From positions 1,407 to 65,406 of the forward strand of contig JBHOQK010000029.1 in NCBI GenBank assembly GCA_042408205.1: a DNA stretch of 64,000 nucleotides, given 5' to 3'. Every line of letters starts with the position of its first letter. Position 1 is the first letter of the stretch. Below, piece by piece: positions 15,177 to 41,766 of the stretch. The translations under genes and the position numbers were made by a program. Below the pieces are notes generated by a model. The model made no database searches and had not been told where the DNA came from. It saw only the letters and a list, made by a program, of their open reading frames with translations. This DNA comes from Dehalococcoidia bacterium. GTDB taxonomy: Bacteria > Chloroflexota > Dehalococcoidia > GIF9 > DYGU01.

Positions 15177-18100
15177 TTATCCTGCGTGTCTTGGCTTACT
15201 CAGGTATTCTCTTAACGGCTGAACGGTAAAAATTTGTCCGCCATTGACAAGAGCCTCCACTGCCACCCTAAAGGTATCCAATGAGGTAAAGCAAGGGATC
15301 CTCTTTTCTGCAGCAGCACGTCTAATATAAAATCCATCTTGGTAAGATATCCTTCCCCCAGTGATAGTATTAACTATTCCATCCACTATCCCTTCATTAA
15401 TAATGTCAATTACGTTAGGATGCCCTTCGCTTAGTTTTTTGCTGATCATTTTTACCGAAAGACCATTTGCCTTAAGCATTGTCGCAGTGCCTTCAGTAGC
15501 ATAAAGTTTATAACCTATAGAATAAAGTTTTTTAATTATAGGCAAAGCCTCAGCTTTATCCCGGTCAGCAATACTTAGGAGAAGACTCCCTTTTTGAGGG
15601 AGCATAAGCCCCGAAGCTAAGAGGGCTTTAACCAAAGCTGCTTCAAAAGTGTAATCAATTCCCATGACTTCCCCAGTAGATTTCATTTCTGGTCCAAGAT
15701 AAGTATCAACACCTATCAGTTTAGACATGGAAAATACAGGGGCTTTAATGGCTACCAATTTCTGTTTCTTCCACAAACCCGTCTCATATCCTTGTTCTTT
15801 AAGGGTTATCCCAAACATTACTTTGGTAGCAATTTTAACCAGGGGTACTCCAGTGACTTTAGATATGAAAGGTACAGTTCGGCTGGAACGAGGGTTTACT
15901 TCAAGAACATAAACACAAGACGAATCGTTCCTACTCCCCCGAGTAATAACAAACTGAACATTCATTAGACCTTTAATTTGGAGAGCTAAAGCGATTTTAA
16001 TAGTATAGTCAACAATAGTGTTTACTTCAGCTTCAGTAAGATTTAAACCAGGATAGACAGCTATAGAATCACCACTATGAACCCCAGCCCGCTCTATATG
16101 CTCCATTATGCCTGGAATGAGGACCCGCTCCCCATCGCTAACAGCATCTACTTCAACTTCTTTACCTTCAAGATATTTATCAATCAATATTGGATGTTTG
16201 TTATCTAATTCTAAGGCAAGGGACATGTAGCGAATTAATTCACTTTCATTGTGAACAATTTCCATAGCTCTGCCACCAAGAACATAGCTTGGGCGCACCA
16301 GTACTGGATAACCAAGACGCTTAGCGATATTAAGCCCAGCGTCTATGGAGGTTACCCCCGCCCCTGGCGGCTGAGGAATGCCTAATCGGCTTAAGAAATC
16401 CTCAAAGCGGTGACGGTCTTCAGCTATATCTATAGCTTCAGCAGTTGAACCAAGAATAGGTAGACCACTTCGGGCTAAAGGCTCAGCCAAGTTAATAGCC
16501 GTCTGCCCGCCAAATTGAACAATAGAAGGTGGGGGAGAGTTAGAATTCCCCAGCGAGTTAAGACTTTCATTTTCAATAATATCTCGGACACTTTCCTCAT
16601 CTAAAGCTTCAAAGTAAAGACGGTCACTGGTATCAAAGTCAGTAGACACTGTTTCTGGATTACAGTTGACCATTATACTCTTAACACTTATTTCCCTAAG
16701 CGCCCAAGCAGAATGGACACTGCAATAATCAAACTCAATGCCTTGCCCAATCCGTATTGGACCACTGCCAATAACTATAGCTTTTGCTTCTTTTATCGGT
16801 TCCGTCTCATTTTCCGTTTCGTAAGCACTATAAAAATAGGGGGTTTCGGCATCAAATTCAGCAGCACAGGTATCTACCATTTTATATACTGGTTTAATTT
16901 GCCAATAATGTCTCAGCTGCCTTACTTGTTCCGGTAATCTATCGGCTAAGATACCAATTTGCTCATCAGAAAAGCCAAGACGTTTCGCTTCCCATAATAG
17001 TTCTGGAGTTAAGGTTTCTTTGAGAAGGCGTTTTTCCATCTCAACAATATTGAGAAATTTATATATAAACCAGGGGTCAATACCAGTATGTCGAGCTAAT
17101 TCCTCCGGGGTAAAGCCCCGTCTTAAAGCTGCCATAATTGCCCATAACCTTAGGTCGTTAGGGTGAAGAGGAAAATCATTTAGGTTTTTGGCTAATGCCC
17201 AACGACTGTCTTCCCATAACAAGGATCTTTTACCAAATTCCAAAGAGCGGACAGCTTTTTGTAAAGCAGCTTCAAAACACCTGCCAATTGCCATGACTTC
17301 CCCTGTCCCTTTCATTTGGGTGCCTATAGTTCTATCCCCTAAAGGAAATTTGTCAAAGGGCCAACGGGGAATTTTAACTACACAGTAGTCAAGAGCTGGT
17401 TCAAAAGCGGCGGTAGTTTTCCCAGTAATTCGATTAGCAATTTCATCCAGTCTTTTACCCACCGCAATTTTAGCCGCCACCCGAGCAATAGGATAGCCAG
17501 TGGCTTTACTGGCTAAAGCGGAACTTCGGCTCACCCTAGGATTAACCTCAATAACATAATAATGGCTATTTTTAACATTTAATTGGTCTGGTGCCCATTT
17601 CTCGGCAACTATAGGATGAGGAGTAAGGGCAAACTGAATATTACACCCACCTTCAATACCTAAGGCTCGAATGATCCTGAGACTGGCAGAACGAAGCATC
17701 TGATATTCTTTATCAGTCAAAGTCTGACTTGGAGCTACTACAATACTATCACCTGTGTGAACTCCCATCGGGTCTATGTTTTCCATATTACAGACTGTAA
17801 TACAGTTGTCAGCTCCATCCCTCATTACTTCATATTCAACCTCTTTCCAACCTAGAACCGATTTTTCTACCAAGACTTCATGATTCAAGCTGGCAGCCAA
17901 TCCCTGGGCCACAATCTTGTCTAATTCTTCTAAAGTGTGAGCAATACCTCCCCCAGTACCACCTAAAGTGTAAGAAGGACGGATAACTACTGGCAAACCA
18001 AGCCTTTTCACTAACTGTCGAGCCTCTTCTACTGAACGCACTGTGTCGCTTTCAGGAACAGGCTCACCAATATTTATAAGTAATTTCTTGAACAAAGACC

Positions 18101-18479
18101 TTTCCTCAGCTTTTTTAATCGTTTCCAAAGGAGTTCCCAAAAGCCTAACGCCATATTTGTCAAGAATGCCAGCATCGGCTAATTCCACAGCCAAGTTAAG
18201 CCCAGTTTGCCCCCCTAAAGTAGGCAAAAGGCCATCGGGACGCTCCCGTTCTATTATACGGGCTAAAACTTCAACTGTTAGCGGCTCAATATAAACAATA
18301 TCAGCAATCCCTTCATCAGTCATGATAGTTGCCGGGTTCGAATTTACTAATACTGTAGTGATGCCTTCCTCCCGAAGAGCTTTACAAGCTTGGGTACCCG
18401 AGTAGTCAAACTCGGCTGCTTGCCCAATAATTATTGGTCCCGAACCAATCACAAGAACCTTATTTACCTTAGCTTTCAC
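15177..18479 (-). CDS. carB: carbamoyl-phosphate synthase large subunit
   Basis: 1100 aa with duplicated ATP-grasp halves plus an MGS-like C-terminal domain, located in the pyrimidine operon. Confidence 0.97.
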
Positions 18480-19569
18480 TTCTCACCATCTCCAAAAATT
18501 TTTCAAACAAATACTCATTATCCTTCGGTCCCGGAGAAGCTTCAGAGTGGTACTGAATAGTCAAGATAGGCAGCTCTTGGTGGCGCAGACCTTCGACAGT
18601 ACCATCATTTAAATTTATGTGACTAACTTCAAGTCCGCCTCTTAGACTATCAGCATCGACAGCATAACCATGGTTTTGAGCCGTAATATAGACTCTATTA
18701 GTAGTCAGGTCACGAACTGGATGGTTGCCACCTCGGTGACCAAATTTTAGTTTGAAAGTCTTCGCGCCAAAAACACGCCCAATTAGCTGATGCCCAAGAC
18801 AAATGCCCATAATTGGTTTCTTACCTACCAGCTCTTTCACTGTTTCCTCCATATAACTAAGAAGAGCTGGATCCCCTGGACCAGGAGAAAGCACAATACC
18901 GTCAGGATTAAGTCGCAAAATATCTTCAGCAGAGGTAGTACAAGGAACAGTAGTGACTAAACAGCCAAGATGACTTAATAGACGCAAAATATTATATTTG
19001 ACACCCAAATCAACTACTACAATATGATAAATAATATCTGACTTGCCTTTTAAGGTATCTGATATCCATTGGCGTATTTCTGTAGTGGTAACCTCTTTGA
19101 CAAAGTCGATAGAATCATATCGGGGTAATTTTTTGAGTTCTTTTAGAGCTTCTTCAGAGGTCATTTCCGAAGTGAGGATGCCCATCATAACTCCCACGGA
19201 GCGGAGACGGCGAGTTAAAGCCCTGGTATCAACACCACTAATCCCTGGGATACCATAAAACAGGAGAAATTCATGTAAGGTTCTTCGACTTTGCCAATGG
19301 CTCGGAGTAAGACAATACTCCCTAATGACAAAGCCTCTTACCTGAATTTGTTTTGATTCAAAATCCTGATCGTTAATCCCATAATTACCAATAAGCGGAA
19401 AAGTAGAAACCAAAATCTGCCCGGCATAAGAAGGATCGGTTAACATCTCTTGATACCCAGTCATACTGGTATTAAAGACAACTTCACCATAAGTAGTAGT
19501 TTGAGCACCAAAGGAATAGCCTTCATAAGTGGAACCATCTTCTAAGACTAAGATCCCTTTTTTGTTCAT
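18469..19569 (-). CDS. carA: carbamoyl-phosphate synthase small (glutaminase) subunit
   Basis: Class-I glutamine amidotransferase catalytic Cys (GICLGHQ) plus the CPSase small-chain N-domain. Confidence 0.95.

Positions 19570-21925: not shown

Positions 21926-21926
<1 letters not shown>
20916..21926 (-). CDS. pyrB: aspartate carbamoyltransferase catalytic subunit
   Basis: STRTR carbamoyl-phosphate motif and HPxQ. The N-terminus is about 25 aa longer than typical, so the true start may lie further in. Confidence 0.9.
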
Positions 21927-22580
<654 letters not shown>

Positions 22581-22651
22581 AAGGTTTAACTCAATAAATA
22601 ATATACCACAATTTTTCAAAGGATACAAGCTGCCAACAATAATAATTAAAA

Positions 22652-25721: not shown

Positions 25722-27179
25722 ATGAAAATGAAAACGGGTAAGGAATACATTGATAGTCTTAAAAAATTGAAACCGGTCGTTTATTACATGGGTAAGAAAA
25801 TAGATAATATAACTGATCATTTAGCCATTTGCCCTCATATAAATGCTGCCGCAACTACTTATGATATGGCTCACGACCCATTTTACCAAGAACTTTTTAC
25901 GGCAACTTCCCATCTTACTGGTGAAAGAATTAATCGCTTCACCCATATCCCCCAGAACACTGATGACCTTGCTAAAAAGGTAAAAATGCTCCGCGTTCTT
26001 GGTCAAAACACAGGTACCTGCTTCCAACGCTGTGTGGGTATGGACGGCTTAATTGCCGTTTATGGAACTACTTATGAGATAGACCAGCAAAAGGGCACTA
26101 ACTATCATCAACGCTTCATAGAATACTTGAAAATGGTTCAGACGGAAGACTTAATGGTTGCTGGTGCCATGACAGACACTAAAGGAGATCGCAGTTTATC
26201 TCCAAACCAGCAAGCAGACCCAGACCTCTATGTGCACATTGTCGAAAAACGTCAGGATGGTATTGTAGTTCGTGGAGCTAAGGCACACATTACCGGAGCT
26301 GTCAATTCCCACGAAATATTGGTTATGCCAACAAGAGCTATGAGTCCTGAAGAATCAGATTATGCCGTTGCTTTTGCCATTCCTACTGATGTACCAGGCA
26401 TAATCTTTATCTTTGGGCGCCAGACTAATGATATCCGAAAAGAAACTTGCCACATCGACCAAGGTAATGTCCAATTTGGTACGGTGGGTGGGGAAGCCTT
26501 AATCATTTTCAATGATGTCTTTGTACCTTGGGAAAGAGTATTTATGTGCGGTGAATATGAATTTACTGGCTTATTAGTCGAAAGATTTGCTACTTATCAT
26601 CGCCAAAATTATGGTGGCTGCAAGACAGGAGTGGCTGATGTACTCATCGGAGCTGCTTTCACTCTTGCCCAATATCAAGGGACTGAAAAAGCCGCCCATA
26701 TAAGAGATAAAGTTGCCGAGATGGTACATCTGGCAGAAACTCTTTATGCTGGCTCTATTGCCTGTTCCAGAGAAGGATATCGGTTAGCCTCCGGTCAATA
26801 TTTTCCTGACCCTCTCCTGGCAAACATCACTAAATTAAACACAACCCGATTTATGTATGAAATATCCCGTTTAGCCCACGATATCACCGGAGGGCTTCTC
26901 GCTACCTTACCGTCTGAAGAAGACTTTAAACACCCCGAGATTGGCAAATATATAGAAAAATATTTTAAAGGAGTAGCTAATGTACCCACAGAAAACCGAA
27001 TTCGCATCGTCAGACTAATTGAAAATATGACTGGAAGCACAGCCCTAGCAGAAGCCATGCACGGCGCCGGTTCACCTCAAGCTCAAAAAATTATGATTCT
27101 AAGGCAAGCTAATTTAGAACACAAAAAACACCTGGCTACCAGATTAGCTGGAATAAAGGAGCCGAAAAAAAGCGCCTGA
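25722..27179 (+). CDS. abfD: 4-hydroxybutyryl-CoA dehydratase / vinylacetyl-CoA delta-isomerase (AbfD family; FAD + [4Fe-4S])
   Basis: Conserved cluster-ligand motif GTCFQRCVGMDG, AMTDTKGDR, PDLYVHIVEKRQDGIVVRGAKAH and C-terminal MHGAGSPQAQKIMI, all typical of AbfD. Confidence 0.85.
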   Translation: MKMKTGKEYIDSLKKLKPVVYYMGKKIDNITDHLAICPHINAAATTYDMAHDPFYQELFTATSHLTGERINRFTHIPQNTDDLAKKVKMLRVLGQNTGTCFQRCVGMDGLIAVYGTTYEIDQQKGTNYHQRFIEYLKMVQTEDLMVAGAMTDTKGDRSLSPNQQADPDLYVHIVEKRQDGIVVRGAKAHITGAVNSHEILVMPTRAMSPEESDYAVAFAIPTDVPGIIFIFGRQTNDIRKETCHIDQGNVQFGTVGGEALIIFNDVFVPWERVFMCGEYEFTGLLVERFATYHRQNYGGCKTGVADVLIGAAFTLAQYQGTEKAAHIRDKVAEMVHLAETLYAGSIACSREGYRLASGQYFPDPLLANITKLNTTRFMYEISRLAHDITGGLLATLPSEEDFKHPEIGKYIEKYFKGVANVPTENRIRIVRLIENMTGSTALAEAMHGAGSPQAQKIMILRQANLEHKKHLATRLAGIKEPKKSA

Positions 27180-27458
27180 GTTTTAAATTTTGAATTTCTA
27201 CTACCTATCAAATCGTTTAAGTGGATAACCCAACTTCAGGTTAGGTTATTGACTCATAAAAGATGTAATATGGAGTTTCGGGGATACCCGTTTAAATAAT
27301 TTTAAATCGATTTATTGACAAATTAAAAAGGTTGATGTACTTTAATATAGTTCTTTGCAATTTTACTATTCCAAAAGACAGGGGGTGATGTGAAGCAGAA
27401 CAAGAACAACCAACTTCTCAAAAGTACAAGACATGCCCTGTTTTAAAGGAGGTAGAAA

Positions 27459-28760
27459 GTGAAACGAGGGTTGTTAATATTTATCGCTTTATTTTTTGTA
27501 ATTGGTTTAGTCTTCGGCTGTGCCCCAAAACCAGCTCCGCCACCAGCACCGATCACACCACCAAAGCCTTTAGGTGTAGATGTAATTAAGATTGGTGGTC
27601 AAGGGGTTACATCAGGTGCTCATGCTGATTATGGGTGGCAAATGATAGCTGGCGCCACTTTAGCTATAGAGGAAATCAATGCTGCCGGTGGCATCTTAGG
27701 TAGTAAGCTTGAGCTTAAATTTATGGATGAAGAGCTGAAGCCAGCGGTAGCTGTTAAGAATGTTCGCTATCTTGTAACCGAATGGGGAGCACATTTCCTC
27801 TTTGGGGTAGATTCAAGTGGTTGTGCTATGGCAGTAGGTCCAGTATTAAAAGAGCTTGATCGGATTAACCTATTTTGTCACGCAGCCACCCATAGGTTAA
27901 CTGAAGAGCTTGTCTACAAAGAGGGAATAAAACAGATTTTCCGAATGACAGTCCCAGTGTATCAAGATGGTATCCTGCCAGCCATAATTTTCGCTGACAG
28001 AGTAAGGTTTCCTGAAATTAAGAGATGGGCATTCATACCCTGTGCTTATGAATATGGTTATGTCAGCAGAGACCTATTTAAAGCCACTCTCAAAAAGCTT
28101 CGTCCCGAAGTAGAATTTGTAGCTGAAGCAGAAGCACCCTTCTGGACTATGGACTTTACACCGCATCTTTCTGCAGTTATGGCGGCAAAGCCTGATGGGA
28201 TTCACGCCACCCCATGGGCAGGCGAAGGAGTGATGCTTTTAAGACAAGCCTTGACACTCGGTGTCTTCGACAAAATTGGAGTTTGGTGGCAGTGTATGGG
28301 GGGCTCAGTAGACTTATTGGAAGGGATAGCTAGAGAAGTTGAGGCTGATAAATTTAAAGGAAAACTGTGGGCTACTGCTCGTTATATCCATAATTGGCCA
28401 GATACAGCCGAAAACAAGGCTTTTGTTACCGCTTTTATGAAGAGATGGGGAGGCAGGTATCCTAACTATTCAGCTGAAGCTTCTTATTCAACCATATATG
28501 TTTTAAAGGCAGCTATAGAAAAGGCAAAGAGTCTGGAAACAGCCAAGATAATAGCAGCATTGGAAGGGATGGAAATTATGACTCCAGCAGGTAAGAGATT
28601 CTTTAGACCGGAAGACCACCAAGCAATCTACACTGTGCCTGCTGGTAGAGTCATTCGTGATCCAGCTTACCGTATTCCCATTCTCGGCGATTTGATAGTG
28701 GTGCCGGCTAAAGACTATTATAGGGCTCCACCCTTCCCACCCATTGAGGCTCCAAAGTAA
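27459..28760 (+). CDS. livK: branched-chain amino acid ABC transporter substrate-binding lipoprotein (LivK/LivJ-like, type-1 PBP)
   Basis: Signal peptide with lipobox (LVFGCAP), type-1 periplasmic binding-protein fold, followed by a livHMGF-type gene set. GTG start with AAAGGAGG Shine-Dalgarno. Confidence 0.8.
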   Translation: MKRGLLIFIALFFVIGLVFGCAPKPAPPPAPITPPKPLGVDVIKIGGQGVTSGAHADYGWQMIAGATLAIEEINAAGGILGSKLELKFMDEELKPAVAVKNVRYLVTEWGAHFLFGVDSSGCAMAVGPVLKELDRINLFCHAATHRLTEELVYKEGIKQIFRMTVPVYQDGILPAIIFADRVRFPEIKRWAFIPCAYEYGYVSRDLFKATLKKLRPEVEFVAEAEAPFWTMDFTPHLSAVMAAKPDGIHATPWAGEGVMLLRQALTLGVFDKIGVWWQCMGGSVDLLEGIAREVEADKFKGKLWATARYIHNWPDTAENKAFVTAFMKRWGGRYPNYSAEASYSTIYVLKAAIEKAKSLETAKIIAALEGMEIMTPAGKRFFRPEDHQAIYTVPAGRVIRDPAYRIPILGDLIVVPAKDYYRAPPFPPIEAPK

Positions 28761-28805
28761 TTTTGAATTTTTGGGGAGTCAGTTAATAACTGGCTCCCCA
28801 AAAAA

Positions 28806-29690
28806 TTGATAATTAAAGTTACCCCAAAAATGCTGGAAATAATTGGATATCAAGGATTAATTGGCATAAGTTATGCTATGTATCTATGGCTAATTGCCGC
28901 TGGTCTTACTATTGTCTTTGGCGTCCTTGGAATAGTTAATTTCGCCCACGGTAGTTTGTTCATGCTTGGTGCTTACTTTGCTTTTACCTTTTATGGGCTT
29001 ATGGGCATAAATTTTTGGCTGGCTATAACCTTAAGTTTCGCTTGTGTTGGTATTGTCGGTTTGATAATGGAGCGCTTCTTCCTACGCTATATCTACCATT
29101 TAGACCTACCCTATCAGCTTATTTTAACTTTTGGCTTTGTCCTTATCTTTGATGACGCAGTAAAAATGGTATGGGGGGGAGTAGCTAAGATCCCCCCCAT
29201 ACCAGCTTTTCTTGATGGTACAATACTTATATTTGGTAGGGCTTTTCCTATTTATAATTTATTTATTATCGGTGCTGGAATATTAGTAGCTGTTGGACTT
29301 TGGCTTCTTTTCGAAAAGACTTGGTGGGGTAAAATAGTTAGGGCTTCAGCTTCAGATAGAGAAATGGCAAGTGCTATTGGTATCAATATTCCTACGTTAT
29401 TTCTATTAGTATTTGCCTTTTGTGCTGCTTTAGCTGCCTTGGGGGGTGCTTTAGGTACACCAGTCAGAGTAGTGGCTCCTGGGATCGGAGTGGCGATGAT
29501 TATCCAAGCTTTTATTATTACTGTGATTGGTGGACTAGGAAATTTAAAAGGAGCTTTTGTTGGAGCATTAATTGTCGGTATCTTCAGCGCCTATGGCACT
29601 CTATTTTTCCCAGTTTTTGAGCTTTTCTTTATATATGTGATAATGGCAGCAGTTTTACTATTAAGACCCCAAGGGTTGTTTGGTAAATGA
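28806..29690 (+). CDS. livH: branched-chain amino acid ABC transporter permease LivH
   Basis: Polytopic membrane protein with LivH-like conserved segments (FAHGSLFMLGAY). ATG 28836 is an alternative start. Confidence 0.8.
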   Translation: MIIKVTPKMLEIIGYQGLIGISYAMYLWLIAAGLTIVFGVLGIVNFAHGSLFMLGAYFAFTFYGLMGINFWLAITLSFACVGIVGLIMERFFLRYIYHLDLPYQLILTFGFVLIFDDAVKMVWGGVAKIPPIPAFLDGTILIFGRAFPIYNLFIIGAGILVAVGLWLLFEKTWWGKIVRASASDREMASAIGINIPTLFLLVFAFCAALAALGGALGTPVRVVAPGIGVAMIIQAFIITVIGGLGNLKGAFVGALIVGIFSAYGTLFFPVFELFFIYVIMAAVLLLRPQGLFGK

Positions 29691-30688
29691 GGCCACGTTA
29701 CTTGCCTAAATTAACCTATAGACATATTCCGCTAGTTCTGCTCTTATTATTAATTATTTTCTTATTTCTTATTCCTCAATTTGCCGGTAAATATATTACT
29801 TACATGACGATTCATATTTTAATCTTGTCGTTATTTGCTTTGAGCTTTAATCTCCTCCTCGGCTATACTGGATTGCTTTCCTTCGGTCAAGCTGCTTTTT
29901 ATGCTGTTGGTGCCTATACTTGTGCCAAAATCCTTATAGCGATACCTTCTCTTTTATTAGGGCTAATTGGTGGCCTATTACTTTCCGGAATAACAGCAAT
30001 TATCTTGGGGTTTCTTTGCGTCCGACATACTGCCATTTATTTCGCCTTGCTCACGCTAAGCTTCGGAATGATGATATATTCTATAGCTTGGAAATGGCGA
30101 GCTTTTACCGGTGGCGATGATGGCTTAGTCGGCATTCCCAGGGCTCCGTTAGAAATACCCGGTATCTTTAGTATTGATATGAGCCCAATGGAGAATTATT
30201 ATTACTTTGTCTTAATTGTTTCGTTACTTGCTATATTTATTTTTTATCGAATTGTCAATTCACCTTTTGGGTTAGTTCTTCAAGGTATCCGCGATAGCGA
30301 AAGCCGAATTGCTTTCGCTGGTATTTCTGTAAGGAACTATCGGCTCATGGCTTTTGTAATTGCTGGATTATATGCTGGATTAGCCGGGTCGCTTTTGCCA
30401 CCTTTAGAAAATACGGTTACCCCACCCGTTGCCCATTGGTCTCATTCTGCAGAACCAGTACTAGTCACTCTCCTCGGTGGGATTTATACCTTTAGCGGTC
30501 CTATAGTCGGCTCACTCCTTTTCTATCTTATAAAGGATATTATAGTCCGATTTACTGAATATTGGCTGATTTGGCTTGGAGCTATTGTCCTGATTTTGGT
30601 ACTTGGTTTCCGTGGTGGTGTAGTTAGTGTGTTTCAAGATAGACTTTTACCGTGGCTCAAATTAAGGCTGATTAAGACAAGTGAATAA
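29687..30688 (+). CDS. livM: branched-chain amino acid ABC transporter permease LivM
   Basis: Polytopic permease with LivM-type motif (LSFGQAAFYAVGAY); 4-nt overlap with livH. Confidence 0.8.
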   Translation: MRPRYLPKLTYRHIPLVLLLLLIIFLFLIPQFAGKYITYMTIHILILSLFALSFNLLLGYTGLLSFGQAAFYAVGAYTCAKILIAIPSLLLGLIGGLLLSGITAIILGFLCVRHTAIYFALLTLSFGMMIYSIAWKWRAFTGGDDGLVGIPRAPLEIPGIFSIDMSPMENYYYFVLIVSLLAIFIFYRIVNSPFGLVLQGIRDSESRIAFAGISVRNYRLMAFVIAGLYAGLAGSLLPPLENTVTPPVAHWSHSAEPVLVTLLGGIYTFSGPIVGSLLFYLIKDIIVRFTEYWLIWLGAIVLILVLGFRGGVVSVFQDRLLPWLKLRLIKTSE

Positions 30689-31440
30689 TGGGAAAGTTAC
30701 TCACAACACAAAAACTTAAAAAATACTTCAGTGAAGTTCACGCCGTTGATGAGCTTGACCTGAGCCTTGAAGAAGGCATTATTACTTCCATAATTGGACC
30801 TAATGGGGCTGGAAAAACGACTTTAATTAATCTTCTGACAGGAAGCTTGCTTCCTGATTCAGGGAAGATATTTTTTAAGGGAGAAGATATCACTATGCTT
30901 CCTGTTCATTTGAGAGTTAAAAAGGGAATATCTCGTTCCTTCCAGATAATGAACATTTTTCCAAAACTGACTGTATTCCAAAACATTCTAATCCCTGTAC
31001 TATCCCTATCAGGGAAGACTCTAAACGTCTTTTCTCGAATCAGCGATCAAAAGACGGCTATAGTTGAAGCTGAAACAATTTTAAAAGTAGTGGGATTGTG
31101 GGATAAAAAAAATTTGTTAGCTGGACAATTATCCCACGGCGACCAAAGACTCTTAGAAATGGGTATTGCCATAGCTGTTAAACCAGAGTTATGTTTTTTA
31201 GACGAGCCCACCTCCGGCATGAATCCCATAGAAAGAGTTGCTGTCCTTGAGACTATAAAAAGGTTGTCGGCAGAAAAAAAGACAACCTTTGTTGTTGTTG
31301 AACATGATATGGATGTTGTCTTCTCTTTATCCGACCGTATAATAGTCATGAATCGCGGCAAAGTGCTTGCTGAAGGAAAACCAAGTGAAATTAAGGAGAA
31401 TAAAGAAGTCCGCGAAATCTATTTGGGGGAGGAAGTATAA
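30688..31440 (+). CDS. livG: branched-chain amino acid ABC transporter ATP-binding protein LivG
   Basis: Walker A GPNGAGKTT, signature LSHGDQRLLE, Walker B LDEPTSG. Confidence 0.85.
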   Translation: MGKLLTTQKLKKYFSEVHAVDELDLSLEEGIITSIIGPNGAGKTTLINLLTGSLLPDSGKIFFKGEDITMLPVHLRVKKGISRSFQIMNIFPKLTVFQNILIPVLSLSGKTLNVFSRISDQKTAIVEAETILKVVGLWDKKNLLAGQLSHGDQRLLEMGIAIAVKPELCFLDEPTSGMNPIERVAVLETIKRLSAEKKTTFVVVEHDMDVVFSLSDRIIVMNRGKVLAEGKPSEIKENKEVREIYLGEEV

Positions 31441-31442
31441 CT

Positions 31443-32147
31443 TTGCTCCTGGAAGTAAATAATATCGTTACTTTTTATGGATTGAGTTTAGCCCTTGATG
31501 GAGTATCCTTAAGTATTGACAAAGGTGAAGTAGTATCTTTGTTAGGAAGAAATGGTGCTGGTAAAACCACCACTTTAAAGAGCATCATGGGATTAGTAAT
31601 TCCAAAATTTGGCAGCATTAAATTCAAAGGTAATGAAATAGTTGGCAAAAAACCCTTTGAAATTGCTCGAATGGGAATCGGATATATGCCTGATGATAGA
31701 CGCATATTTCCAGACTTAACTGTAGAGGAAAATTTAGAGATAAGCCGGCGAACACGTACCAAAAACCAGGAAAAGTGGACGATCCAAGCAGTATATGAAT
31801 TATTTCCTACCCTTAAGGAATTAAGAACAAGAAAAGGTATACATTTGAGTGGTGGTGAGCAGAAAATGTTGGCTATAGGTAGAGCCTTAATGAAAAGCCC
31901 CGATCTCCTATTATTAGATGAGCCAGCTGAAGGTCTTAGTCCTTTAATTGTACAAAGTCTTATCGAAGCAATTCTCAAAATCAAACAACAAGGTGTTACC
32001 ATACTTGTGGCTGACCAAAATTTAAGATTTTGCCGAAAAATTGCTGACCGCGGTTATATAATTGATAGAGGCACCATCTGTTATCAAGGTAGTTTAAATG
32101 AAATCTGGCAAAACGAAGAAATAGTCAAGAAATATTTAGCAGTATAA
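31443..32147 (+). CDS. livF: branched-chain amino acid ABC transporter ATP-binding protein LivF
   Basis: Walker A GRNGAGKTT, signature LSGGEQKML, Walker B LLDEPAEG. TTG start. Confidence 0.85.
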   Translation: MLLEVNNIVTFYGLSLALDGVSLSIDKGEVVSLLGRNGAGKTTTLKSIMGLVIPKFGSIKFKGNEIVGKKPFEIARMGIGYMPDDRRIFPDLTVEENLEISRRTRTKNQEKWTIQAVYELFPTLKELRTRKGIHLSGGEQKMLAIGRALMKSPDLLLLDEPAEGLSPLIVQSLIEAILKIKQQGVTILVADQNLRFCRKIADRGYIIDRGTICYQGSLNEIWQNEEIVKKYLAV

Positions 32148-32227
32148 GTCGTAAAGCTATAGTTACTAGAGTTATAAAGGTTATACTTCTCTCACCAAAA
32201 ATGATTATTTTGTGGAGGTAGAGATTA

Positions 32228-33556
32228 ATGAAGCAGTCAGCAGAATTCTACCATCCTGAAATTGAGACTATGTCTAGAGAAGCTTTAAACAAACTGCAAT
32301 TTGAGCGTCTTAAGTGGCAACTTAACCGGTGCTATCAAAATTCGGAATTTTACCGGGAAAAATTTGACCGAGCTGGCATTAAACCGCAAGATCTAAAATC
32401 ATTATCAGACTTGATTAAATTTCCCATAGTAACAAAGCAGGAACTTCGTGAAGAACAGGCAAAATATCCCCCTTATGGTAGATATACTGTTTCACCACAG
32501 AAAGACTGGAGAGAAGTTCACCCCACTACTGGGACTACTGGAGCACCAGTCTACAACATATGGTCTGAAGAGGATATTAAAAATATTACTTCTTGGACAG
32601 CAAGGACTTTATGGAATTTTGGAGTTCGCCCTGGAGACATAATTCAGAATGCTTTTAGCTATGGACTTTGGGTTGCTGGTTTATCATGTCATTATGGTGC
32701 CCGAGAATTAGGCTGCCTTGTTATTCCGATTGGTGCTACTCCAGTAGATAGACAAATTGATTATCTTATTAACACCCGTGCTACAGTCCTTTTGGCTACG
32801 CCTTCCTTCGCTATATATTTGGCAGAAAGACTGAGAGAAAGAGGTATCTCACCCGAGGACATAGCATTGCGCATAGGTTGCTTTGGCGGTGAGCCTGGAG
32901 CAGCAGTAGAATCAACACGGAAAAAGATTGAGACAGGCTTGGGAATAGATGCCTTTGATTATTATGGACTGGCCGAAATTGGACCAACCTGCGCTTCTGA
33001 ATGTCCCGAAAAGGCAGGAATTCACTGGGCAGAAGACCATATTTTTATCGAAGTAGTCAATCCAGAAACAAGAGAATGGTGTAAACCCGGTGAAATTGGT
33101 GTTTTAGTTATGACTCATCTGACAAAAGAAGCTACCCCAATGATCAGATACTGGACAAATGACCTTGCTCGCCTTGACTTGGAAAAATGTGCTTGTGGCA
33201 GAACTCATGCCAGGTCACCAGGAGGAATACTGGGAAGAGCTGACGATATGATTGTATATAGAGGTGCTAAGTTTTACCCCGCCCAGGTAGAAAAGGTATT
33301 ACGAACATTTAAAGAACTTAGTGATGAATATCGAATACAACTTACTACAGACGAAAAATTGGGTACCGATGTCTGCACTATAGTGGCTGAATATTTGAAA
33401 GAGGATATAAATAAAGAACAACTGATAGAAAATATACGGATGGCACTCCGCGAAGAGCTTCAAGTTACCCCCCGTGTTGAGTTGGTAAAATTCGGCTCGT
33501 TAGAGAGAACTACCTTTAAAGCAAAAAGATTAGAAGACAAAAGGAAAAAAGCTTAA
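32228..33556 (+). CDS. paaK: phenylacetate-CoA ligase-like (PaaK family) adenylate-forming acyl-CoA synthetase
   Basis: PaaK-type N-terminus (SREALNKLQFERLKWQLNRCYQNSEFYREKFDRAGIKPQDLKSLSDL...PIVTKQELRE), adenylation core and size of 442 aa. Confidence 0.75.
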   Translation: MKQSAEFYHPEIETMSREALNKLQFERLKWQLNRCYQNSEFYREKFDRAGIKPQDLKSLSDLIKFPIVTKQELREEQAKYPPYGRYTVSPQKDWREVHPTTGTTGAPVYNIWSEEDIKNITSWTARTLWNFGVRPGDIIQNAFSYGLWVAGLSCHYGARELGCLVIPIGATPVDRQIDYLINTRATVLLATPSFAIYLAERLRERGISPEDIALRIGCFGGEPGAAVESTRKKIETGLGIDAFDYYGLAEIGPTCASECPEKAGIHWAEDHIFIEVVNPETREWCKPGEIGVLVMTHLTKEATPMIRYWTNDLARLDLEKCACGRTHARSPGGILGRADDMIVYRGAKFYPAQVEKVLRTFKELSDEYRIQLTTDEKLGTDVCTIVAEYLKEDINKEQLIENIRMALREELQVTPRVELVKFGSLERTTFKAKRLEDKRKKA

Positions 33557-33621
33557 AATTATTTTCCTTTAATTAATTGTGCTTTGATTCTTGACTTTAA
33601 CTAATTCGAAGAGGCTAAAAG

Positions 33622-35394
33622 ATTAAAGGATTTTTCAACAAAGCGCTGCATATAAATCTAACCTCTTCAGAATATTGGGCAGAAGAAATAAAAGACGATG
33701 TTTTATCCTCTTGGCTCGGAGGGAGAGGTCTTGGATGCTATCTCTTATGGAGAAATTTAAAGAAAGGCACCGACCCTTTATCACCGGAGAATGTTATTAT
33801 CTTCGCCACTGGACCAGCTACTGGAACAAAGATGTTCGGCTCCAGCCGTTATGGTGTCTATACCAAATCACCTTTAACTAACTTCTTTGCTGACTCCTAC
33901 GCCGGCGGTTATGTGGCTCCAGCAATGAAAAGAACAGGTTATGATGCCATAGTCATTCATGGCTCTTCACCTTCACCAATTTTCCTTGAAATTTCACCAA
34001 ATAATGTTAAATTTTGGGATGCTTCAGACCTGTGGGGCAAAGACACTCACCAAACTGAAGACGAATGTCTAAAAAAAGTTAACGTCCCAGGAGCTCAGGC
34101 AATTGTCATTGGACCAGCAGGGGAAAATCTGGTGAGATTTGCTTGTATCGTGAATAACTATTGGCGGAATGCTGGTAGGACTGGCGTTGGTGCAGTGATG
34201 GGTTCTAAAAAGCTAAAAGCTATTGTATTTTGTGGAAATAAACAGCCTGAAATAGCCGATCCCCAGCTTTTAGAAAGCTTAGTCCAAGAACTCCTTGAAA
34301 AAGGGAAAGTCGATCCGGTAGCTCGGCGCTATAAAGAATTAGGAACGCCAATGTTAGTCAGAATAACTAATGAAGCTGGTGCTTTCCCGGCAGAATACTG
34401 GTCCAAGGGAAAAATAGAGGGTTGGGAAAATATTTCTGCCGAAACTTTACTCAAGAGATTTAAAGTAAGACCTAAAGCCTGTCCCAGGTGTTTCCTTAGT
34501 TGTGGAAAGTTAACCACCATAACTGAAGGCAGACATAAAGGATTAATCATTGAGGGACCTGAGTATGAAACTATTTACAGTTTTGGGGGATTGTGTAAGA
34601 TTTTAGATTTGGCTGAAATTGCTTATTTAAACGATATTTGCGATAGATTGGGCATGGATACTATAACCGTTGGTAACCTTATAGCTTTGTGCATGGAGTT
34701 ATCCCGAAGGGGAAGACTTACCCAAAAGGTAGAATACGGAAATGCTGACCAGGCTGCCCAATTATTATTCAAAATCTGTCATAAAGAAGGCATAGGAGAT
34801 ATTTTAGCCGAAGGAATAAGAAAAGCCAGTCAAACTTTGAACGCATTAGATTTGGCTATTCATGTTAAAGGATTAGAGCCAGCTGGATATGACCCAAGGG
34901 TACTTAAAGGTATGGCACTTAGTTATGCTACCTCACCTCGTGGAGCTTGTCACTTGCCAGCAACTTTCTATATATTTGAATTACGCCGTGTTATTGAACC
35001 TTCCCAGATTGAAGGTAAAGCAGAGCTCTATATTAAATATGAAGACCGACTTACTATTATGGATACAATGATTTTATGCCGTTTCTTTAGAGACTTGATA
35101 GGCTGGAAAGAACTAATCCAATTAATAAGAGCCACTACCGGGTTAGAATTTGATGAAGGGCAGCTTAGAAAGATAGCTAATAACATCACTACCTTGAGAC
35201 GCTTAATAAACCTGCGCGAAGGATTAACAAAACAAGATGATATGTTGCCAGAACGTTTTTTTATTGAGCCAAGGAGTGATGATGGCATTAAAGTGGAAAA
35301 GGAAGAATTCCTTTATATGCTGGAAAAATATTACTATTTGCGTGGTTGGGATAGTCAAGGAAATCCCCTAATGCTTGACTCTCTTAATTGTTAA
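33622..35394 (+). CDS. aor: aldehyde:ferredoxin oxidoreductase (tungsten-containing AOR family); probable non-canonical ATT start
   Basis: The ORF track starts at M33832. The same frame stays open back to a TAA at 33616-18, and the extension encodes the conserved AOR N-terminal domain (FNKALHINLTSSEYWAEEIKDDVLSSWLGGRGLGCYLLWRNLKKGTDPLSPENVIIFATGPATGT). No ATG/GTG/TTG lies in that stretch; ATT 33622 sits 7 nt after GAAGAGG. Downstream AOR motifs are present. Confidence 0.75.
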   Translation: MKGFFNKALHINLTSSEYWAEEIKDDVLSSWLGGRGLGCYLLWRNLKKGTDPLSPENVIIFATGPATGTKMFGSSRYGVYTKSPLTNFFADSYAGGYVAPAMKRTGYDAIVIHGSSPSPIFLEISPNNVKFWDASDLWGKDTHQTEDECLKKVNVPGAQAIVIGPAGENLVRFACIVNNYWRNAGRTGVGAVMGSKKLKAIVFCGNKQPEIADPQLLESLVQELLEKGKVDPVARRYKELGTPMLVRITNEAGAFPAEYWSKGKIEGWENISAETLLKRFKVRPKACPRCFLSCGKLTTITEGRHKGLIIEGPEYETIYSFGGLCKILDLAEIAYLNDICDRLGMDTITVGNLIALCMELSRRGRLTQKVEYGNADQAAQLLFKICHKEGIGDILAEGIRKASQTLNALDLAIHVKGLEPAGYDPRVLKGMALSYATSPRGACHLPATFYIFELRRVIEPSQIEGKAELYIKYEDRLTIMDTMILCRFFRDLIGWKELIQLIRATTGLEFDEGQLRKIANNITTLRRLINLREGLTKQDDMLPERFFIEPRSDDGIKVEKEEFLYMLEKYYYLRGWDSQGNPLMLDSLNC

Positions 35395-35416
35395 ACTTAA
35401 TTGACGGGAGGTAACC

Positions 35417-36184
35417 ATGATTTTAGATAAATATCATTTAGATGGTAAAGTAGCCTTGATTACTGGTGGCTCCAGAGGCATTGGTAAAGCGATTGCTCAA
35501 GGCTTTGCTGAGGCTGGAGCTGATATAGTTATTGCCAGCCGCAAACTCCCTGACCTTGAAAAAGCAGCTACGGAAATTTCAGCCACAGGAAGGCGTTGTA
35601 TACCTATAGCTGCTCATGCGGCAAAAAAAGAAGAACTGGACAATCTGGTGAATAAAACTATGGCAGAATTTGGTCGGATTGACATCTTAGTCAATAATGC
35701 TGGTACCAATCCTTATTTCGGGGAAATCATCAACGCTGAAGAATGGGCATGGGATGCTATCATGAATCTTAATTTAAAAGGTTATTTTCTGTTAAGCCAA
35801 GCCGTAGCCAAAATAATGATAAAGCAAGGAGGCGGCTGTATTATCAATATAGCTTCAGCAGCCGGTATTAGACCCTTTCCCGGACTGGGAATATATTCTA
35901 TTAGTAAAGCTGGCGTCATTATGCTTACCCAAGTACTGGCTATGGAATTGGGTAAATACAACATAAGGGTTAACGCCATCGCCCCAGGAACAACCAAAAC
36001 CCGGTTAGCTCAATTTTTAGTAGAAACCCCCGAGATATCCAAAAGGATAACTGAACATACTGCCTTAGGTAGAATTGGTGAACCTGAGGATATAGTCGGG
36101 GCAGCTCTCCTCTTAGCTTCTGATGCCTCACGCCATATTACCGGACAAACCATTACTGTCGATGGTGGTTTAATCACTTTTTAA
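35417..36184 (+). CDS. short-chain dehydrogenase/reductase (FabG-like NAD(P)-dependent oxidoreductase)
   Basis: TGGSRGIGKAIA cofactor motif, NNAG, and the catalytic S...YxxxK (YSISKAG). Confidence 0.85.
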   Translation: MILDKYHLDGKVALITGGSRGIGKAIAQGFAEAGADIVIASRKLPDLEKAATEISATGRRCIPIAAHAAKKEELDNLVNKTMAEFGRIDILVNNAGTNPYFGEIINAEEWAWDAIMNLNLKGYFLLSQAVAKIMIKQGGGCIINIASAAGIRPFPGLGIYSISKAGVIMLTQVLAMELGKYNIRVNAIAPGTTKTRLAQFLVETPEISKRITEHTALGRIGEPEDIVGAALLLASDASRHITGQTITVDGGLITF

Positions 36185-41419: not shown

Positions 41420-41766
41420 TGGTGGAGGCGGGGGAGAGTCGAACTCCCCGTCCAGAAGAGAACTACCAGAATCCCCTACAGGCTTAGTCAGCTCTTTTAT
41501 CTCGTCTAACTGTCCTCAGCTGACCAAGTCCAGTTAGACCAGTCGATAACTCTTAGCCAGCCCCTATCGACTTCAGGACTGGAGCACCCCGACTCATCGG
41601 CGCCCAATCCCAACCCATCGGGGCGAGGTCAGGTTGGACGGGCAACCTTAATTAGGCTGCGACAGGAACTGCTTCGGCAGTTGTCTTTGCCCTTTGTTTT
41701 ATGAGGTTAAGGGCACCTCAGCCTGCTATTCTGTTCGTTCCTCCTCTGTCGAACCCACGCGCCCCC
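41420..41766 (-). ncRNA. ssrA: tmRNA (SsrA), about 347 nt, CCA encoded
   Basis: Minus-strand 5' end GGGGGCGCGUGGGUUCGACAGAGGAGG... pairs as a tRNA-like acceptor with the 3' end ...GGACGGGGAGUUCGACUCUCCCCCGCCUCCACCA (T-arm plus CGCCUCC-A-CCA). Internal ORF GCA AAG ACA ACU GCC GAA GCA GUU CCU GUC GCA GCC UAA gives tag AKTTAEAVPVAA ending in AA. Lies 15 nt downstream of smpB. Confidence 0.85.

Follow-up and report, generated by a model that had tools for sequence, protein, structure and literature searches.

An aldehyde:ferredoxin oxidoreductase gene with a probable AUU start codon in an uncultured Dehalococcoidia bacterium and recurrence of the codon among its orthologs

Introduction

Where does translation begin in a gene whose conserved N-terminus lies upstream of every ATG, GTG and TTG in its reading frame? 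The question is raised by an aldehyde:ferredoxin oxidoreductase (AOR) gene in a 64,000-nt stretch of DNA from an uncultured Dehalococcoidia bacterium (GenBank assembly GCA_042408205.1, contig JBHOQK010000029.1, positions 1,407 to 65,406 of the forward strand), hereafter called the window. A first-pass annotation of the window had suggested that the gene either starts at an ATT codon at position 33622 or has become a recent pseudogene through a start-codon mutation or a sequencing error. Comparison with orthologous and more distant AOR loci makes it very probable that this is a functional AOR gene whose translation begins at AUU 33622. Initiation at AUU is already known, from infC and pcnB; what is new is its occurrence in a tungstopterin oxidoreductase family and an uncultured Dehalococcoidia host, the repeated switching between ATG and ATT or ATC, and a possible link to an overlapping mini-open reading frame (mini-ORF). 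A search of the full-text literature turned up no paper in which ATT starts are connected with either AOR genes or Chloroflexi.

Results

The reading frame upstream of the first canonical start

The start region of the AOR gene contains the following features (window coordinates).

33622-35394, + strand: full-length AOR-family coding sequence, probably ATT-initiated; 590 codons plus stop
33622-33624, + strand: inferred initiation codon ATT, aligned with Met1 of homologs and present as the same codon in orthologs
33608-33614, + strand: Shine-Dalgarno (SD)-like GAAGAGG, exactly 7 nt 5' of the ATT
33616-33618, + strand: in-frame TAA, two codons before the ATT, closing the AOR frame
33625-33831, + strand: codons 2-70, opening part of the N-terminal domain, free of canonical starts
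33832-33834, + strand: internal ATG (Met71), wrongly called as the start by ORF callers

The TAA is followed in the AOR frame by AAG, ATT and AAA, and the frame then remains open until the stop codon at 35392-35394, the in-frame TAA being separated from the conserved Lys2 by AAG and ATT alone. The first ATG, GTG or TTG in this frame is the ATG at 33832 (codon 71), from which a mechanical ORF list derives a product of 520 aa. The first-pass annotation had read the region in the same way, and the sequence bears it out: the ORF caller starts at an internal Met, the frame is open for 70 codons upstream of it, no canonical start separates the TAA from the conserved domain and the ATT lies exactly 7 nt after GAAGAGG. 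Its further claim, that a conserved N-terminal domain precedes Met71, holds as well. Pfam AFOR_N (PF02730) covers residues 8-206 (profile positions 2-198 of 199, E = 1.5e-77) and AFOR_C (PF01314) covers residues 221-583 (E = 4.6e-116), so that both AFOR_N and the AFOR_C domains 2 and 3 are present, as in members of the AOR family. A phmmer alignment to the AOR of Pyrococcus furiosus (1aor) runs from residue 4 to 582 of the query against residues 3-590 (E = 3.8e-115), and the pairing of query residue 4 with 1aor residue 3 places the ATT codon on Met1. Since the N-terminal domain begins 5' of every canonical start, the protein needs 70 codons that contain none.

The alignment also pairs the residues expected of the enzyme. 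The CxxCxxxC motif and distal Cys of the [4Fe-4S] cluster (kaCprCflsCg/kpCyaCpigCg and ilCrf/glClf), the Glu of EGPEYE (iEGPEYE/tEGPEYE) and the active-site His (gaCHl/ggCHi) are all aligned with 1aor; in the P. furiosus enzyme we take the ligands and active-site residues to be C288, C291, C295, C494, E313 and H448 (1AOR numbering). These features argue for an intact, functional AOR-family tungstopterin/[4Fe-4S] oxidoreductase. Binding of a bis-pterin tungsten cofactor and ferredoxin-linked oxidation of aldehydes are putative activities of the protein, by homology to solved AORs.

It is conceivable that the upstream codons are not translated at all, the product being the 520-aa protein from ATG 33832 or one begun at CTG 33646 (codon 9) or ATA 33652 (codon 11). 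Met71 is invariant across the clade of close orthologs described below and is the start used by public annotation. However, it is an internal residue whose ATG has no SD (best upstream duplex, -3.3 kcal/mol), and codons 2-70 begin the AFOR_N domain and are conserved at the protein level though synonymous sites are saturated. The CTG and ATA codons, which the first-pass annotation had offered as weaker alternatives, are located where it placed them but do not stand as start candidates: both lie 31-37 nt from the SD, and among orthologs the Leu codon at 33646 varies freely (CTG/CTA/CTC/TTG), as does the Ile/Val codon at 33652 (ATA/GTA/GTT/ATT/GTG). We consider any of these starts to be highly improbable. 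Residues 2-70 contain tryptic peptides such as ALHINLTSSEYWAEEIK and GTDPLSPENVIIFATGPATGTK.

An upstream ATG in another frame, combined with a frameshift, was also ruled out. No ATG occurs in any frame within 33557-33621, and homologs are without an N-terminal extension.

Recurrence of the codon among orthologs

We defined the close clade as proteins with ≥69% identity in the protein search, which gave 23 members, 22 of them informative; the contig of the remaining one (L094, protein P0017) ends before the start region. Informative loci made up 2/3 of those found in the genome collection. As background, 77 AOR loci with 35-58% identity, none of them clade members, were taken from among the matches listed in a metagenome scan.

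The window frame, IKGFFNK, is in register with the MKGFFNK N-termini of most close homologs. At the homologous codon, eight orthologs have ATT (L004, L005, L006, L007, L008, L009/L010, L091, and L092), one has ATC (L001) and two have ATG (L002 and L093). Across the clade, 10 members are non-canonical (nine ATT, including the window, and one ATC), 12 begin with Met and one is unknown. The ATT and ATC orthologs come from at least 8 independent assemblies or sequencing projects. None of the 77 distant loci, among the matches listed, lacks a canonical start; each has ATG, GTG or TTG at, or a few codons from, the homologous position. The difference between 10 non-canonical members of the close clade and 0/77 distant loci is marked (Fisher P ~1e-11), with a sample biased towards suspects.

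The window and seven orthologs (L006, L007, L008, L009, L091, L092, and L001) have an in-frame stop 2-10 codons 5' of this codon, and no ATG, GTG or TTG intervenes. Two of the ATT orthologs differ: in L004 an ATG stands in frame 11 codons before the ATT, with AAGGAGG 8 nt before the ATT, and L005 has a TTG immediately 5' of its ATT in the AOR frame. The window gene has an AUU at the codon homologous to the N-terminus and no canonical start that would give the full protein; it also has an SD at functional spacing and shares a non-canonical codon with orthologs under purifying selection.

A separate observation concerns L092, where positions 614-625 read ATT AAT AGC TTT (I-N-S-F) and its close relative L006 reads ATT AAA GGC TTT (I-K-G-F). 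These are two substitutions in the near-invariant Lys2-Gly3, with the ATT and leader unchanged.

Constraint on the N-terminal codons and history of the start

ORFs are intact in all 12 orthologs for which DNA was available (12/12), with 587-590 codons counted from the homologous codon. Between orthologs, codons 2-70 show pN of 0.04-0.23 and pS of 0.12-1.06, the latter mostly saturated, no different from the remainder of the gene, with dN/dS ~0.05-0.3 wherever computable. When the DNA sequences are aligned, conservation with a three-base period sets in at the ATT. The only conserved element 5' of it is a purine-rich SD block (GGAGG/GAAAGG), present in all orthologs at a spacing of 4-8 nt.

These data bear on the possibility that the ATT arose by error in sequencing or assembly, or through a very recent change from ATG to ATT that has left a fresh pseudogene. 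Such an origin would fit the closest relative, L093 (81% identity), which has ATG and a clearly homologous leader (ggctaaaacgATG vs ggctaaaagATT). However, eight further orthologs have the ATT, the sister L091 among them, and their assemblies are independent; the 590-codon ORF is intact, and codons 2-70 are under purifying selection. Neither mark of a pseudogene is present, constraint in codons 2-70 being unrelaxed and the codon being common to nine other genomes. We therefore regard an error or fresh pseudogene as effectively excluded. Comparison of orthologs at this codon, which the first-pass annotation had proposed as one of several checks, favors its genuine AUU-initiated gene: eight ATT orthologs and one ATC ortholog, intact ORFs, and purifying selection before Met71.

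In a neighbor-joining tree, ATT and Met-initiated members are interleaved. The window groups with L091 (ATT; bootstrap 81/100), this pair groups with L093 (ATG; 69/100), and L001 (ATC) groups with L002 and P0011 (ATG/Met; 100/100). Fitch parsimony on 100 bootstrapped neighbor-joining trees gives 5-8 changes between canonical and ATT/ATC starts (mode 6). The interleaving and the number of changes indicate that the AOR start codon has switched repeatedly. Since ATT or ATC was gained or lost at least 5 times in the clade and does not occur among the 77 distant loci listed, selection appears to tolerate or favor such a start here. On these comparative grounds, the ATT is no error but has been maintained.

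Gene-specific or lineage-wide use of the codon

The recurrence could also reflect a host lineage with relaxed start-codon discrimination, in which ATT and ATC starts are scattered over many genes and the AOR is one visible case. Indeed, repeated ATG-ATT/ATC switching implies that these genomes tolerate the codon well, and every ATT or ATC case comes from one group of related uncultured Chloroflexota. The UvrB encoded on the contig that carries P0001, the database form of the window product, is 85-94% identical to UvrB of metagenome-assembled genomes named Chloroflexota or Dehalococcoidia, and the named AOR relatives point to the same host group. We surveyed start codons in all ORFs of ≥120 codons in the 64-kb window, the extent of the host genome covered. 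The leader free of canonical starts is 71 codons in the AOR gene vs ≤25 in the other domain-bearing ORFs, and, in the ten ORFs that come next in leader length, Pfam domains start 3' of the first canonical codon. No other gene within the window was found to need a non-canonical start, which speaks against lineage-wide relaxation. So do the distant AOR homologs named Chloroflexi or Chloroflexota, which are full-length and Met-initiated. Furthermore, random scatter would be unlikely to fall on the same ortholog in ~10 genomes with saturated synonymous sites. Relaxation across the lineage is accordingly improbable in our judgment, if less so than an error or an internal start.

Proposed initiation at AUU and points against it

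Initiation factor 3 (IF3) discriminates against third-base-mismatched initiation complexes. At the window gene, initiator fMet-tRNA would read the AUU with a third-position mismatch, the GAAGAGG 7 nt upstream would position the codon, and discrimination by IF3 would result in low, IF3-sensitive output. If infC and pcnB of E. coli are a guide, translation of the AOR is probably low and sensitive to IF3; which tRNA initiates and how much protein is made are inferences. AUU gave 1-2% (range 0.02-3%) of AUG output in E. coli reporters (bioRxiv 10.1101/063800) or, by another account, was six- to eight-fold below AUG (PMC3592434). A stronger SD in the ATT/ATC orthologs was not detected: the median duplex energy is -8.1 kcal/mol vs -6.9 kcal/mol in canonical-start AOR loci, a difference that is not significant (P = 0.11).

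Several points weigh against AUU initiation in the window. The case for it is built on comparative sequence, and the survey of the host covers 64 kb only. The duplex of GAAGAGG with the 16S rRNA tail (-5.8 kcal/mol) is of median strength for the window's genes. L004 and L005 are ambiguous, since a canonical start is nearby and the AUU need not be used there. Finally, the leader RNA contains a predicted helix.

33565-33574, + strand: 5' arm of a 10-bp A/U-rich helix, paired with 33621-33630 (UCCUUUAAUU with GAUUAAAGGA) in the minimum free energy structure

The helix has a duplex energy of -10.9 kcal/mol (z = -3.7 vs shuffled upstream sequence) and, in this model, may mask the AUU and the codons that follow. 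It is conserved in no ortholog and is specific to the window, and the predicted fold of the entire 5' region is no more stable than that of shuffled sequence (z = +0.57). The 5' arm of the helix starts 9 nt past the stop codon of the upstream ligase gene; as a speculation, ribosomes terminating at that stop could open the helix and so gate the AUU.

A possible mini-ORF overlapping the ATT

The ATT of the window overlaps the stop codon of a short frame.

33591-33626, + strand: possible mini-ORF in the +2 frame, TTG plus 10 codons plus TAA; its stop (TAA 33624-33626) overlaps the ATT (ATTAA)

Eight of the nine ATT genes have such a canonical-start mini-ORF in the +2 frame, ending on a TAA or TAG that overlaps the ATT (ATTAA/ATTAG), whereas none of the three ATG/ATC orthologs does (0/3). 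The mini-ORF starts with ATG in L091, L007, L009, L006, L092, and L008, with TTG in the window and with GTG in L005. When the near-duplicates L006 and L092 are merged, the count is 7/8 vs 14/53 canonical-start AOR loci (Fisher P = 0.0016), the 14 controls being those with a canonical-start +2-frame ORF that reads into the start codon; for ATG-initiated mini-ORFs it is 5/8 vs 4/53 (P = 0.001). Shuffled leaders give an expectation of ~0.45 when any canonical start is allowed and 0.23 when the start must be ATG (P ~0.02). The arrangement is that of translational coupling, with a canonical-start upstream ORF whose stop overlaps the downstream start.

AUU initiation at the AOR gene might accordingly be fed by termination and reinitiation. 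Ribosomes would start at the mini-ORF, read across the SD and terminate at a UAA or UAG whose U is the last base of the AUU; they would then reinitiate at the AUU, a weak codon that would depend on, or be regulated by, the mini-ORF. The enrichment over controls and the absence from ATG/ATC orthologs are in line with this, and the 5-nt AUUAA overlap is possible only with a start codon that ends in U. L005 adds to it in its geometry: at 1483-1506 the stop of the upstream amidohydrolase gene overlaps a GTG (TAGTG), which opens a 7-codon mini-ORF whose TAG overlaps the AOR ATT, a possible relay. On the other side, the observation is post hoc and comes from a small sample of related sequences, and the stop follows trivially from an ATT followed by AAA or AGA. 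Most of the mini-ORF starts have no SD, so that their translation is uncertain; L004 (ATT) and L001 (ATC) have no mini-ORF, and neither its length (6-24 codons) nor its sequence is conserved. The window's own mini-ORF is the weakest example, with a TTG start, no SD and a position 35 nt after the stop of the previous gene. Moreover, reinitiation in E. coli uses initiator tRNA, is inhibited by IF3 and is not known to relax codon choice (PMC2268962). We offer this refinement of AUU initiation tentatively, as something rather unlikely. Somewhat more doubtful still is the idea that the ATT and its overlapping mini-ORF form a selected device, in which the AUU is driven or gated by reinitiation and single-base ATG-ATT toggling would act in Dehalococcoidia as a recurrent evolutionary dose dial for a cofactor-expensive tungsten enzyme.

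Neighboring genes and other features of the window

The AOR gene is flanked as follows.

32228-33556, + strand: phenylacetate-CoA-ligase-like (PaaK-like) AMP-binding enzyme gene (Pfam AMP-binding, AMP-binding_C_2)
35417-36184, + strand: short-chain dehydrogenase gene (Pfam adh_short_C2; SD CGGGAGGUA), beginning 22 nt after the AOR stop

Both belong to a co-directional cluster (25722-36184, + strand) that consists of an HpaB-like enzyme gene, five genes of a Liv-type ABC transporter (binding protein, two permeases, and two ATPases), the PaaK-like CoA ligase, the AOR and the short-chain dehydrogenase. No promoter-like or terminator-like site was found in the 65-nt gap between ligase and AOR genes. 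The AOR is probably co-transcribed with the ligase-like gene, in an operon with the Liv-type transporter, the PaaK-like ligase and the short-chain dehydrogenase, and the composition of the cluster suggests a module for uptake and degradation of amino acids or aromatic acids. The orthologs show no conserved synteny; their neighbors include DctM, Amidohydro_2, DUF362, DHO_dh plus Fer4, and AMP-binding genes.

Two further candidates for the leader were rejected. A leaderless or short-leader transcript was dismissed, the TTGACT at 33591 having no acceptable -10 element. A Moco/Wco riboswitch would not fit into the 65-nt gap, and Rfam showed no riboswitch or leader RNA near the AOR gene.

Elsewhere the window contains three RNA features that lie on the - strand.

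41420-41766, - strand: tmRNA gene (Rfam RF00023, 161.5 bits; ARAGORN tag peptide AEAVPVAA*)
2854-2927, - strand: tRNA-Pro (GGG), the only tRNA gene in the window
22458-22588, - strand: PyrR binding-site RNA (RF00515, 56.1 bits; gathering score 54)

The PyrR RNA stands directly 5' of a PyrR/UPRTase-like gene (21926-22459) and a co-directional run that includes an ORF of 1101 aa (15177-18482). This run is probably a pyrimidine operon under attenuation control.

Mis-started public records

The database protein identical to the window product is P0001, the truncated form of 520 aa, and at least nine public records of the AOR clade are mis-started. Eight (P0001, P0003, P0014, P0018, P0019, P0020, P0024, and P0025) take an internal Met, GTG or TTG as the start, which gives proteins of 517-583 aa. 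An upstream ATG was called in P0006 (599 aa) and the adjacent TTG in P0013 (591 aa), vs 587-590 aa from the ATT. These records are mis-started because gene callers consider only ATG, GTG and TTG, not ATT or ATC. As a consequence, they will be taken for fragments or domain-incomplete enzymes in metabolic reconstructions of Dehalococcoidia.

Apart from this clade, the AOR-family protein P0084 of Carboxydothermus islandicus has 561 aa, begins with MEKIGGKGLG and is ~26 residues shorter than its C. pertinax counterpart, P0042 (MMKGFYGK...). It is possibly a further AOR with a wrong start or a frameshift, this time from a cultured genus.

Discussion

Confirmed AUU-initiated genes are very few in bacteria; in E. 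coli, infC and pcnB are the only ones (bioRxiv 10.1101/063800). To these the AOR clade would add a family of metabolic enzymes in which the start has switched at least 5 times. The clade offers a natural series for asking why weak starts are selected and whether overlapping mini-ORFs help ribosomes to use them.

The window protein resembles the AOR of P. furiosus (PDB 1AOR) and other AOR-family enzymes in having AFOR_N and AFOR_C and in aligning from end to end. In contrast to the window gene, P. furiosus AOR and the 77 distant homologs, among the matches listed, start at ATG, GTG or TTG.

Known cases of coupling by overlapping stop and start codons (AUGA and UAAUG; M13 genes V-VII and MS2 coat-lysis) share with the window an upstream stop that overlaps the downstream start and an SD inside the upstream frame (PMC2268962, PMC3592434, PMC10666635). 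The ATT genes differ in having a mini-ORF of 6-24 codons in place of an upstream gene, in their 5-nt AUUAA/AUUAG overlap, and in that their coupling is putative.

A close parallel in the start codon itself is infC, the gene for IF3 in E. coli and many other bacteria. Like the window gene, infC has AUU at its true N-terminus with normal SD spacing, and the codon is common to its orthologs; in both, the AUU would be inefficient and sensitive to IF3 (PMC9723500, PMC3592434, bioRxiv 10.1101/063800). However, IF3 regulates its own AUU in a feedback loop, which an oxidoreductase cannot do, and the AUU of infC is near-universal whereas the ATT of the AOR is patchy, being found in about half of the clade after 5-8 switches. 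The E. coli gene pcnB (poly(A) polymerase I) encodes an enzyme, as the AOR gene does, and its start codon varies among lineages; its output is thought to be capped by the inefficient AUU start (bioRxiv 10.1101/063800). The two genes belong to unrelated families and hosts, and the AUU start that was confirmed by experiment in pcnB is deduced in the AOR from comparison of orthologs.

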